Shown one piece after another: positions 6,288 to 7,553 of a DNA stretch of 64,000 nucleotides (the first letter of the stretch is position 1; each line of letters starts with the position of its first letter). The stretch is taken from positions 26,151-90,150 of the forward strand of contig JBBILH010000003.1 of the NCBI GenBank assembly GCA_037445005.1, written 5' to 3'. The stretch is from Nitrospira sp. (GTDB lineage Bacteria > Nitrospirota > Nitrospiria > Nitrospirales > Nitrospiraceae). The notes beneath the pieces are model-generated. The model saw nothing but the letters and a program-made list of their open reading frames with translations. It searched no databases and was not told where the DNA came from. Made by a program: the position numbers and the translations under genes.

Positions 6288-7553
6288 CTAGCGGTTCGGA
6301 GCTGACGGCGACAGATGGGTCATGCTGACCGCCTTCACGAATCTAGTATGGCGGACGCTTTCCAAGAACCCCTCAAGGGGATCTGGAGGAGGCGAAGGCA
6401 GTTCGACCGGATACCAGCCTTGATCGACCATTCCCTTACTTCCATGAACTTCCCGAATCATGTGGTCGATGTTTTCCTCGGATGTTCCTTCTTGAAAGGA
6501 CACCCAAAATGTGAATGGTTGCATGGAAGAACCGGAACGTCCTTCGGCCATTTGAGTCATATCCACTTCCGTTTGTTTCTCGGCGGCGGCAAGCCCGGCG
6601 CCTTTGGTCGTCGTCACCTTGGAAACATCGACTCCGGCGGATTTGAGCCGGGTTTTGAGGTCCACGTTGCTGTTCTCCAGCGCCGTCACCTGCTTGGCCA
6701 AGGTTTCGTTGGCCAGAACCAGGCCGTGCAATTCTTTCCGGAACTGTGCCCGTTCTGCTTCCGCCTTGCTCAACAGCACGCGGGTCACGTGTTCGATGTC
6801 TCGATCCCCGCCGTTCTTACGGTCGTCCGCTGCGCGCGACACGGATTTAATCTCTGATGCCGTGCGCTGCTGGGCGGCCGCCATGTCTGCCAGAGATTTC
6901 CGCAGCTGCGCCAGCTCGTCTCGTTGCGACTCGACAAGCTGCCGGTTCGCCGCTTCAGCCTGGGTTAGGCGGTCGATTTGCGCTTCAAGAGCCGCCATCT
7001 CCGTCTCGCCGACGCGTACCGGCTGGGGCTCCCGCGTCGAAGCGAGGTATCGGTCGGCTCCCAACGCCAGCACGGCGCCCGCGAGGACGATTTGGGCCGT
7101 GGCAGTCGCCCATGCCCTGTCCGGATTCCCTCCCGGCCCCTTCTTCAACCCCGCGGCGGCTCGTTTCACCAAGCGCTGGATTCGACTCAACGGGGTCGGA
7201 CCAGAATGGATTGCAAGATTCACGGATCCCTCATCCATCCGGTTGCGCACCTCGAGGTTGAGGGTTCGCCCGGGCAGGTGCACCCGCGACATTCTCATGG
7301 CGCGTTCCGACGCATTGAGCCCTCCGATCAACCGGCCCTCTTCACTCCGTACTTCCACATGATGAATGACATGGCCTCGACAGGTATGGACGAACGAGGC
7401 GTCGGATCGCGCGCCGTCCAAGGTTCCAACCCGCTCGAGGTTCACGAACAGATCCATCCGACCGCCGTCGAGTCGATGCCGATTCCGGATCAGCGAGCGC
7501 AGCCTCTCGATCACATGATCTCGATAGGCCATTATGGGTGAGTCATGTGTCAT
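6288..7553 (-). CDS. Membrane-anchored coiled-coil protein, putative anti-sigma-like partner
   Basis: Hydrophobic segment AQIVLAGAVLALGA, long heptad-rich region, C-terminal FWVSFQEGTSEENIDHMI domain; start overlaps the stop of the upstream gene. Confidence 0.7.
   Translation of the reverse strand: MTHDSPIMAYRDHVIERLRSLIRNRHRLDGGRMDLFVNLERVGTLDGARSDASFVHTCRGHVIHHVEVRSEEGRLIGGLNASERAMRMSRVHLPGRTLNLEVRNRMDEGSVNLAIHSGPTPLSRIQRLVKRAAAGLKKGPGGNPDRAWATATAQIVLAGAVLALGADRYLASTREPQPVRVGETEMAALEAQIDRLTQAEAANRQLVESQRDELAQLRKSLADMAAAQQRTASEIKSVSRAADDRKNGGDRDIEHVTRVLLSKAEAERAQFRKELHGLVLANETLAKQVTALENSNVDLKTRLKSAGVDVSKVTTTKGAGLAAAEKQTEVDMTQMAEGRSGSSMQPFTFWVSFQEGTSEENIDHMIREVHGSKGMVDQGWYPVELPSPPPDPLEGFLESVRHTRFVKAVSMTHLSPSAPNR

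Follow-up and report, generated by a model that had tools for sequence, protein, structure and literature searches.

A conserved gene pair of Nitrospiraceae that probably forms a new membrane-to-gene signalling pair

Comparison with described sigma/anti-sigma systems

Class I ZAS anti-sigma factors (zf-HC2, PF13490) are single-pass membrane proteins that are encoded directly after, and coupled to, a cytoplasmic partner, an ECF sigma factor. They possess a helical anti-sigma domain and the motif H/C-x(23-26)-H-x3-C-x2-C. In the groups ECF48, ECF52 and ECF53, to which SCO4117 of Streptomyces coelicolor belongs, the sigma factor carries, fused in cis at its C-terminal end, a ZAS domain and transmembrane helices (PMC8999054, PMC5826349). 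The CorE-like ECF sigma factors (ECF238, formerly ECF44) carry a C-terminal cysteine-rich domain (PMC3107203, PMC8999054).

The genes A and B were analysed in the window, a stretch of 64,000 nucleotides of Nitrospira DNA. Protein B resembles the class I ZAS anti-sigma factors in its single membrane passage and in the coupling of its gene to that of a cytoplasmic partner directly upstream. Its C-terminal domain is homologous to the extracytoplasmic domain of ZAS proteins, the closest of which form the uncharacterised subfamily of the protein G000:C9:51220-51885 (G000 being the window's own assembly). In contrast to these proteins, B has neither the helical anti-sigma domain nor the ZAS motif, and its partner A is not recognised as a sigma factor. 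Moreover, the ZAS homologues have a gene for a secreted C14 or S8 peptidase behind their own, whereas no secreted peptidase gene adjoins the A-B pair.

Taken together, A plus B match the order of the ECF48, ECF52 and ECF53 proteins, with a helix-turn-helix or sigma-like part, a ZAS-like Cys/His motif, a transmembrane helix and a putative extracytoplasmic region. However, the fusion proteins are single polypeptides, while here the parts are distributed over two genes, with the break behind the zinc motif. B has in addition a beta-sandwich, probably cytoplasmic, ahead of its transmembrane helix, and the sigma part of A is invisible to sigma models. The lineages (Actinobacteria versus Nitrospiraceae) and the periplasmic domains differ as well. 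With the CorE-like proteins A shares the outline of a sigma-like regulator with its own C-terminal cysteine-rich metal or redox site, which is putative in A. The CorE-type proteins are recognisable ECF sigma factors that work without a membrane partner, whereas A is obligately paired with a membrane protein and is matched by no sigma model.

The membrane protein B and its C-terminal domain

Gene B (6288..7553, minus strand) encodes a bitopic membrane protein of 421 amino acids according to its open reading frame, the family alignment and an AlphaFold2 model. It starts with ATG at position 7553, and the stop codon of gene A is TGA at 7543-7545, which results in the 11-nt overlap that the original prediction had stated. 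A ribosome-binding site, GAGGAGG (7565..7571, minus strand), can be read directly in the sequence 11 nt ahead of this ATG and within the 3' end of gene A. The overlap and the internal GAGGAGG couple the translation of gene B to that of gene A in the window. The family of B comprises 66 representatives with E ≤ 0.001 (clustered at 50%), and every full-length member inspected has the same architecture. This confirmed gene B as a real and conserved Nitrospira gene. The only matches of B in Pfam, NCBIfam and PADLOC were noise from the coiled coil (Filament, SMC, JetC and similar). The names given to B in the source database, 'EnvC' and 'DNA repair exonuclease', are driven by the coiled coil and are not backed by any domain match in Pfam or NCBIfam. 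A Foldseek comparison of the whole model with the PDB gave no match at E ≤ 0.001; coiled-coil hairpins (colicin, PI3K coiled coils) and generic ferredoxin-like folds were listed.

Residues 1-118 of B (7200..7553, minus strand) form an N-terminal helix (5-25) and an eight-stranded beta-sandwich (32-117) in the AlphaFold2 model, with a pLDDT of 80-87. This part is probably located in the cytoplasm. Y10, R69, G73 and G77 are invariant residues within it. Neither Pfam nor NCBIfam gave a match to it at a threshold as loose as E ≤ 10, the PDB profile search returned zero sequence relatives, and the genome contains no paralogue. As modelled, the N-domain is a novel, all-beta sandwich, unlike any known anti-sigma domain, and not the helical domain of anti-sigma factors.

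A single transmembrane helix is located at residues 146-168 (7050..7118, minus strand), where the identity within the family is about 40%. In all 31 members examined this was the sole hydrophobic peak, in line with the one hydrophobic helix predicted. The 19-residue Kyte-Doolittle value was 1.59 in the B of the window and 1.7-2.6 in the 30 other members, and a second peak above 1.45 did not occur in any of the 31. The charge bias flanking the helix does not settle the topology. B has no signal peptide, and the corresponding domain of ZAS proteins is extracytoplasmic, which together suggest that the C-terminal part lies outside. The helix is followed by a long helical stalk (residues 181-317; 6603..7013, minus strand), in which AlphaFold2 placed helices at 181-245 and 250-317, and the anticipated coiled coil was thereby borne out. 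Only coiled-coil families in Pfam, NCBIfam and PADLOC matched this stalk of about 135 residues, and weakly. It is presumably periplasmic. Such a stalk is normal for anti-sigma factors in this organism, since the same genome encodes an RskA-type anti-sigma factor with the order ZAS, transmembrane helix, coiled coil and RskA_C.

The best-conserved part of B is its C-terminal domain, with a family identity of about 50% compared to 25% for the coiled coil. This ferredoxin-like domain, which B has in common with ZAS anti-sigma factors, covers residues 344-410 (6324..6524, minus strand), of which 347-410 were predicted to fold as beta-alpha-beta-beta-alpha-beta (pLDDT 73-85). The similarity to the C-terminal end of zf-HC2 anti-sigma proteins, which the original prediction had noted, was examined with G000:C9:51220-51885. 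This protein is a ZAS anti-sigma factor (Pfam zf-HC2, E 2.7e-6) with a partial match to the NCBIfam model NF052375 'anti-sigma factor', and its gene is coupled by 4 nt to an ECF sigma gene in the same genome as B. In hhalign, the C-domains of B and the ZAS protein were aligned over 65 columns with a probability of 97.8% and an E-value of 6.6e-13. The score of 64.8 compares to 9.3 for the reversed profile, and none of 40 column-shuffled controls scored above 13.6. When an HMM built from the ZAS C-domain was run against the genome's full set of 39,203 open frames, B was its best non-self match (E 0.008), while the reverse HMM, made from the B C-domain, failed to recover the ZAS protein in the genome scan. 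The merged alignment of both C-domains is nearly gapless. These profile comparisons show real homology between the C-domain of B and the extracytoplasmic domain of a canonical ECF-linked ZAS anti-sigma factor. The relationship is visible by profiles alone, and pairwise BLASTP of B and the ZAS protein gave no match. No Pfam model covers this domain of about 65 residues. The genome scan for its spread used one peptide pattern only and hence undercounts its occurrence.

Two other relationships of the C-domain were considered. Foldseek aligned the B model with the pro-subtilisin propeptide 3whi_B (rmsd 2.8, 70 columns, E 0.17), and hhalign against the pro-regions of two neighbouring S8 peptidases yielded E-values of 0.3-0.7. 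Homology to subtilase propeptides was rejected, and the likeness may be taken as an idea at the level of the fold. A marginal PDB profile match to IpaD (E 0.01, domain E 0.19) was judged to be due to chance.

The partner protein A

Gene A (7543..8445, minus strand) encodes an all-helical soluble protein of 300 amino acids. Its true start is the ATG at 8445, which is preceded by AAGAGGAG. The AlphaFold2 model has a pLDDT of 82 and a pTM of 0.63, and the family comprises at least 166 clusters. Residues 223-252 (7690..7779, minus strand) contain the motif C-x21-H-x3-C-x2-C (C223, H245, C249 and C252), in which the three cysteines are invariant and the histidine is nearly invariant among 64 homologues. 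B has a single cysteine in the whole protein and lacks the HxxxCxxC of zf-HC2 proteins, so that the original prediction was right in placing the zinc-type motif on the partner. The likeness to ZAS is at the motif level only, as 17-19 columns were aligned with the ZAS motif of a canonical anti-sigma factor at a probability of 20%. Pfam zf-HC2 missed the motif in A and in the 64 homologues. The genome scan with PF13490 missed it as well, and its four matches all lie away from the A-B locus.

A weak helix-turn-helix resembling sigma region 4, SRDALMALFHHLYGFNQTSVAKLLGINREESQRVYKNFERWR, is located at residues 126-166 of A (7948..8070, minus strand). It was aligned by hhalign with ECF region 4.1-4.2 of two independent ECF profiles (E 0.002-0.01, probability 4-14%), and region-2 similarity was not detectable against the ECF profiles. 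A had been described as sigma-like, and the searches for sigma domains did not sustain this. Sigma-70 region 2 (PF04542) and region 4 (PF08281/PF04545) were absent at E ≤ 1 from A and from the 64 homologues scanned singly. Genome scans with PF04542 and TIGR02937 missed A, no sigma model of the Pfam and NCBIfam libraries matched it, and a PDB profile search with the A family found nothing. The scan with PF04542 revealed 12 recognisable sigma-70 family genes in the genome. At the level of the fold, the best match of A in all of the PDB was the ECF sigma factor SigE of M. tuberculosis, with a non-significant E-value of 0.48. From its sequence features, A may be described as a zinc-motif, DNA-binding-like protein, with a putative zinc site and putative DNA binding.

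Pairing, distribution and proposed function

A and B occurred in the identical 40 of 301 sampled Nitrospirota genomes. The carriers were the genome of the window and 39 of 50 other genomes of its family, Nitrospiraceae as assigned by source names, and none of 250 genomes in other families. Wherever one contig holds both genes, they are adjacent and co-oriented, overlapping by up to about 40 nt or separated by up to about 75 nt; the same arrangement is present in the loci L001 and L004 and in one JGI contig. They are two separate genes in 40 of 40 genomes. A fusion was not found among the 166 clusters of the A family, in which longer entries represent over-called N-termini only. B is an obligate, usually translationally coupled partner of A. 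Across 10 loci there was no conserved third gene beside the pair, and the ECF sigma gene close to it in the window (9464-10726) was not kept elsewhere. In L001 an OmpA-family coiled-coil protein is encoded near the pair. A joint distribution of A-B with the sigma-ZAS-C14 cluster was rejected, as the distributions differ. The ZAS family was present in 8 of the 50 same-family genomes and in other families, and G210 and G295, the two genomes of the same genus within the phylum sample, both have the ZAS family and both lack A-B.

A and B probably constitute a new membrane-to-gene signalling pair. With a probability of roughly 55%, B is a single-pass sensor that forms with A a transmembrane sensor/regulator pair, resembling a sigma-ZAS-transmembrane fusion that was split after the zinc motif. 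The N-domain of B would hold or modulate A at the membrane, and the C-domain would perceive an envelope signal that B relays. A would then act on transcription, and its zinc/thiol site could serve as a second, cytoplasmic input. In function such a pair would resemble a sigma factor with its anti-sigma factor. In favour of this reading are the strict pairing and coupling of the genes, the architecture of B, its C-domain homology, the stalk of the RskA-type anti-sigma factor, the helix-turn-helix, the Cys/His motif and the SigE fold match of A and the precedent of the fused sigma factors. The failure of all sigma models, the lack of region-2 similarity, the E-value of the SigE match, the failure of zf-HC2 on the motif of A, the all-beta N-domain of B and the charge bias that leaves the topology unsettled weigh against it. 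Of the rearranged sigma/anti-sigma pair proposed originally, the pairing, the transmembrane helix, the bitopic architecture, the C-domain and the lack of a ZAS motif in B were retained, but A was not recognisable as a sigma factor and the N-domain of B is not a helical anti-sigma domain.

A more specific reading, which follows the original prediction strictly and which we regard as tentative, takes A as a true ECF-type sigma factor that is strongly diverged and has a zinc switch in cis, and B as the membrane anti-sigma factor that sequesters A and frees it on an envelope signal. The order of motifs in A is co-linear with ECF sigma factors ('AEDI...W' near the start, the helix-turn-helix on region 4.2), and E. 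coli sigma-70 was, besides SigE as top match, among only 11 fold matches in total. The sensor domain common to B and the ZAS anti-sigma factors and the strict coupling of the genes favour the same roles, and sigma-ZAS-transmembrane fusions are a known precedent (PMC8999054). However, no sigma model of any library was significant, B lacks an anti-sigma domain, and region 2 of A escaped detection. Region 2 of sigma factors is needed for recognition of the -10 element and for core binding. In an extended and doubtful form, A is pictured as a sigma factor beyond the reach of current models, with its own ZAS-type zinc/redox switch in cis, and B as a new kind of membrane partner that grips A with its beta-sandwich in place of an anti-sigma domain. 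The outer domain of B, the module that in classical ZAS anti-sigma factors is genetically linked to secreted C14 or S8 peptidases, would make it a peptidase-responsive sensor, and redox and envelope-proteolysis signals would converge on one regulator. The same reading, equally doubtful in this respect, would make the pair a novel class of sigma regulation that is limited to nitrite-oxidising and comammox members of the Nitrospiraceae.

It seems rather unlikely that A is not a sigma factor and acts as a soluble zinc- or redox-sensing helix-turn-helix regulator, or as a soluble ZAS-like anti-sigma factor for a sigma factor encoded elsewhere, with B as membrane tether and sensor. The helix-turn-helix and the Cys/His motif are the only reproducible features of A, all sigma models failed, and the 12 sigma-70 family genes are possible targets. 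The pair nevertheless has no conserved third gene, the ECF sigma gene of the window does not accompany it, and a sigma factor is still at the top of the fold matches of A. A role outside transcription, with B as an envelope-spanning coiled-coil scaffold and A as a cytoplasmic zinc-binding adaptor, would agree with the coiled coil as longest part of B, its source names, its colicin and PI3K fold matches and the OmpA-family protein in L001, but is improbable given the higher conservation of the anti-sigma-type C-domain, the helix-turn-helix-like segment of A, the unconserved neighbourhood and the missing domain support for these names.

Nitrospira oxidise nitrite and perform complete ammonia oxidation, and to our knowledge their regulation is almost unstudied. 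About four fifths of the sampled Nitrospiraceae genomes carry the A-B pair, which is absent elsewhere in the phylum sample, and neither protein is annotated. An unnamed extracytoplasmic domain is now tied to two contexts, the ZAS anti-sigma factors beside secreted C14 or S8 peptidases and B, which provides a concrete handle on what this domain senses. If A is a sigma factor, current sigma models miss a whole lineage-specific group, and the pair would document that the sigma-ZAS-transmembrane fusion design also exists in split form.

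A coupled gene pair of the Nitrospiraceae

Gene B was found at positions 6288-7553 of the minus strand as an open reading frame of 421 amino acids with its ATG at 7553, in an assembly of 3.5 Mb and 183 contigs that is Nitrospira-type by the source names of homologues; the window spans C3:26151-90150 of this assembly. The upstream gene A, open on the same strand from 7543 to 8484, overlaps B by the 11 nt noted originally, as read directly from the sequence (...CAC CAC CAT GAC ACA TGA, with B's ATG inside); a GAGGAGG is located 11 nt ahead of this ATG. Alignment of homologues sets the start of gene A at the ATG at 8445, behind AAGAGGAG, which yields a product of 300 amino acids. 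A word-indexed search returned 11 clusters of B homologues, and phmmer, run exhaustively over 1.84 billion representatives, returned 66 at E ≤ 0.001 and 28 at E ≤ 1e-30. Every full-length member inspected has the same architecture, the short members being fragments, and M1 is invariant in an alignment of ten sequences. Gene B is a real and conserved gene. Identity to the B protein of the window is highest in the C-domain (~50%), followed by the membrane helix (~40%), the N-domain (~33%) and the stalk (~25%).

A and B make up a two-gene unit, obligate and in most cases translationally coupled, that is restricted to the Nitrospiraceae. Profiles of B (alignment A1) and A (alignment A3), each run against the same 301 Nitrospirota genomes, matched an identical set of 40, the source genome and 39 of 50 further genomes sampled from the same family; both genes were absent from 11 genomes of this family and from 250 genomes of other families, all tallies being samples of related, not independent, genomes. 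In 39 of the 40, A and B were located on one contig and one strand, A first, with a spacing between ~40 nt of overlap and a gap of ~75 nt. The remaining genome had each match at or near a contig end, so the expected conservation held wherever the contig allows adjacent, co-oriented genes to be seen. Independent contigs presented the identical arrangement. Within the window's own genus the pair is rare, gene A being present in two of 32 other genomes (G316 and G325) versus 39/50 in the family sample; G325 carries two copies of A ~1.5 kb apart. This uneven presence suggests a patchy past in which the gene was lost or transferred.

Beyond A-B, an all-ORF BLAST comparison of ten loci revealed no gene conserved in every locus. 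Two small secreted paralogues without Pfam match, one of them lipoprotein-like (3166-3582 and 3585-3863, minus strand), and a small ORF divergent from A (8664-8834, plus strand) adjoin the pair in some loci only. Homologues of 3585-3863 adjoin A-B divergently in loci L001, L004 and L010, and in the window the two lie beyond otsA; in L001 the small ORF is matched by a homologue at the corresponding place (4697-5020, 45% identity, E 3e-8). An ECF42-like ECF sigma factor whose C-terminal extension consists of DUF6596 plus TPR (9464-10726, minus strand) adjoins the pair here, not in other genomes. Downstream of B, all on the minus strand, are genes for a trehalose-6-phosphate synthase (GT20, 4545-6233, E 2e-121), a GT4 glycosyltransferase (2009-3109) and an MFS transporter (659-1999), the latter two also found downstream of A-B in locus L016 of genome G189.

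Architecture of B and its C-terminal domain

The AlphaFold2 model of B, based on a ten-sequence alignment, had a mean pLDDT of 65, as expected of a modular membrane protein. It comprises a helix (residues 5-25), eight beta strands (32-117, pLDDT 80-87), a second helix (121-134), a hydrophobic helix (144-172), two long helices (181-245 and 250-317), a disordered linker (318-346) and a beta-alpha-beta-beta-alpha-beta domain (347-410, pLDDT 73-85). The single hydrophobic helix of the original prediction was recovered as one peak around residues 146-168 in 31 of 31 members (19-residue Kyte-Doolittle scan), reaching 1.59 in the window and 1.7-2.6 in the others; second peaks never exceeded 1.45. The orientation cannot be read from the charges on either side of the helix. 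We infer an N-in/C-out topology because the 145-residue N-domain is folded and lacks a signal peptide, and because the homologous C-domain of zinc-binding anti-sigma (ZAS) proteins sits past their membrane helix. A periplasmic coiled-coil stalk has a canonical precedent in a second anti-sigma factor of this genome (C9:32724-33743, minus strand; L008:595-1614), which combines ZAS, membrane helix, a ~70-residue coiled coil and RskA_C.

The N-domain had no match in Pfam or NCBIfam, no paralogue within the genome, no sequence relative in the PDB and no significant fold match. It is all-beta and therefore not a known anti-sigma domain; the predicted cytoplasmic domain of B is novel. B contains a single cysteine and no HxxxCxxC, in agreement with the zinc motif reported as missing.

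The proposed likeness of the C-terminal end to that of zf-HC2 anti-sigma proteins proved to be homology. Among the genome's matches to PF13490 (zf-HC2) is a textbook pair located on contig C9, in which an ECF sigma factor (C9:51882-52472; NCBIfam sigma models, E down to 4e-49; TIGR02937, E 8.6e-30) is 4-nt coupled to a ZAS anti-sigma factor of 221 amino acids (C9:51220-51885; zf-HC2 E 2.7e-6) with one membrane helix and the C-terminal end ...LRVRVTFQEQATVGQIRAVLESVRAQILEGPDGSGSYLLRIP...LLKSRSDVVSNAEP. Homology is concluded because hhalign of the two family profiles (57 and 49 sequences), each covering the C-terminal ~80 residues, gave a probability of 97.8% and E 6.6e-13 over 65 columns, with a score of 64.8 versus 9.3 for a reversed profile and at most 13.6 for 40 column-shuffled profiles; because B was the top match after self (E 0.008) when the ZAS C-domain HMM was run, filters off, against all 39,203 open frames of at least 50 amino acids in the genome; and because the merged alignment is almost gap-free. 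The common pattern, V-x-F-Q-[ED]-x-x-[TS]-[ED]-E-x-I-...-H-G-R-...-G-x-Y-x-[IV]-E-V-...-L-E-x-L-[RK]-...-I-V-[RK], is discernible by eye. The reverse HMM, built from B, did not recover the ZAS protein in the genome scan. The domain has no Pfam model, and a PDB sequence search returned no related solved structure. Protein P0191 of the B family (399 aa) carries two tandem copies, which makes the C-domain an independent, duplicable module. P0182 (118 aa), in which a J-domain-like N-terminus is joined to a B-type C-domain, could be either a fragment or a separate architecture.

The ZAS family sharing this domain is patchy: in the 301-genome sample, the window's family has it in 8 of 50 genomes, and it is present in six further families of the phylum. 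A scan of GTDB species genomes, limited by its search pattern, found it in seven Nitrospira assemblies and in two Gammaproteobacteria, namely a Methylococcaceae MAG and Noviluteimonas caseinilytica. Every ZAS locus found has the order sigma, anti-sigma, secreted peptidase, which suggests that the C-domain is connected with envelope proteolysis. The cluster of the source genome (C9:48879-52472, partly covered by L007; relatives at L030-L038) ends in a C14 caspase domain protein (PF00656, E 3e-27). Such a protein is third in 7/7 Nitrospira loci (59-72% identity), and an S8 subtilase in both gammaproteobacterial loci (E 1e-34 and 1e-27). No secreted peptidase neighbours B, and the A-B pair and the peptidase cluster were not co-distributed across the 301 genomes. 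The likeness of B's C-domain to the subtilisin propeptide is one of fold only (3whi_B, rmsd 2.8, 70 columns, E 0.17); comparison with the pro-regions of subtilases adjoining ZAS relatives gave no sequence support.

The partner protein A

A is soluble and helical, and carries an HTH-like segment as well as a Cys/His site. Grouped at 90% identity, its family has at least 166 clusters, which are 47-60% identical and come from Nitrospira-type sources without exception. The AlphaFold2 model of A is confidently all-helical (pLDDT 82, pTM 0.63). C81, C223, C249 and C252 are invariant among 64 aligned sequences and H245 nearly so (≥90%). The prediction that the zinc motif resides on the partner is supported by the resulting near-invariant C-x21-H-x3-C-x2-C, but the Pfam zf-HC2 model does not detect the HLxxCxxC stretch, which aligned with the ZAS motif of the canonical anti-sigma factor over 17-19 columns at 20% probability.

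No sigma model of Pfam or NCBIfam matched A, nor any of 64 family members scanned one by one; genome scans with PF04542 and TIGR02937 missed A while finding 12 and 11 other sigma genes, and a profile search of PDB sequences gave no sigma match. Compared by hhalign with two ECF profiles built in-house (7 and 26 sequences), A aligned through residues ~101-165 to region 4.1-4.2 (E 0.002-0.01, probability only 4-14%) and gave no region-2 match. Foldseek returned only 11 PDB matches at E ≤ 10, the best being the M. tuberculosis ECF factor SigE (9m9e_F, E 0.48, 183 columns). Since the family tests fail and weak likenesses of HTH, fold and motif remain, a sigma-like nature of A is a suggestion only.

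A proposed variation on transmembrane regulation

The outer domain of the bitopic protein B is a homologue of an anti-sigma sensor domain. We favour, at a probability of roughly 0.55, a general transmembrane regulator pair. The N-domain of B would contact A, and the C-domain would perceive an envelope cue, possibly a proteolytic one, as the ZAS clusters suggest by analogy; A would next act on transcription and would receive a second input through its Cys/His site. The original observation was confirmed, and its interpretation in part. Within this model, the narrower proposal of a rearranged sigma/anti-sigma pair agrees with the pairing, the membrane helix and the C-domain homology, but A fails all sigma models and the N-domain of B is all-beta, which leaves the strict form rather unlikely. 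ECF48, ECF52 and ECF53 fusions unite sigma, ZAS, membrane helix and outer region in one protein (PMC8999054). A plus B repeat this order, from an HTH/sigma-like part through a ZAS-like motif and membrane helix to an outer domain, but are split in two after the zinc motif. The proposed regulator pair of these Nitrospiraceae is a variation on the anti-sigma/transmembrane-regulator theme, in which the predicted cytoplasmic domain of B is of a novel kind and its partner A unclassified.
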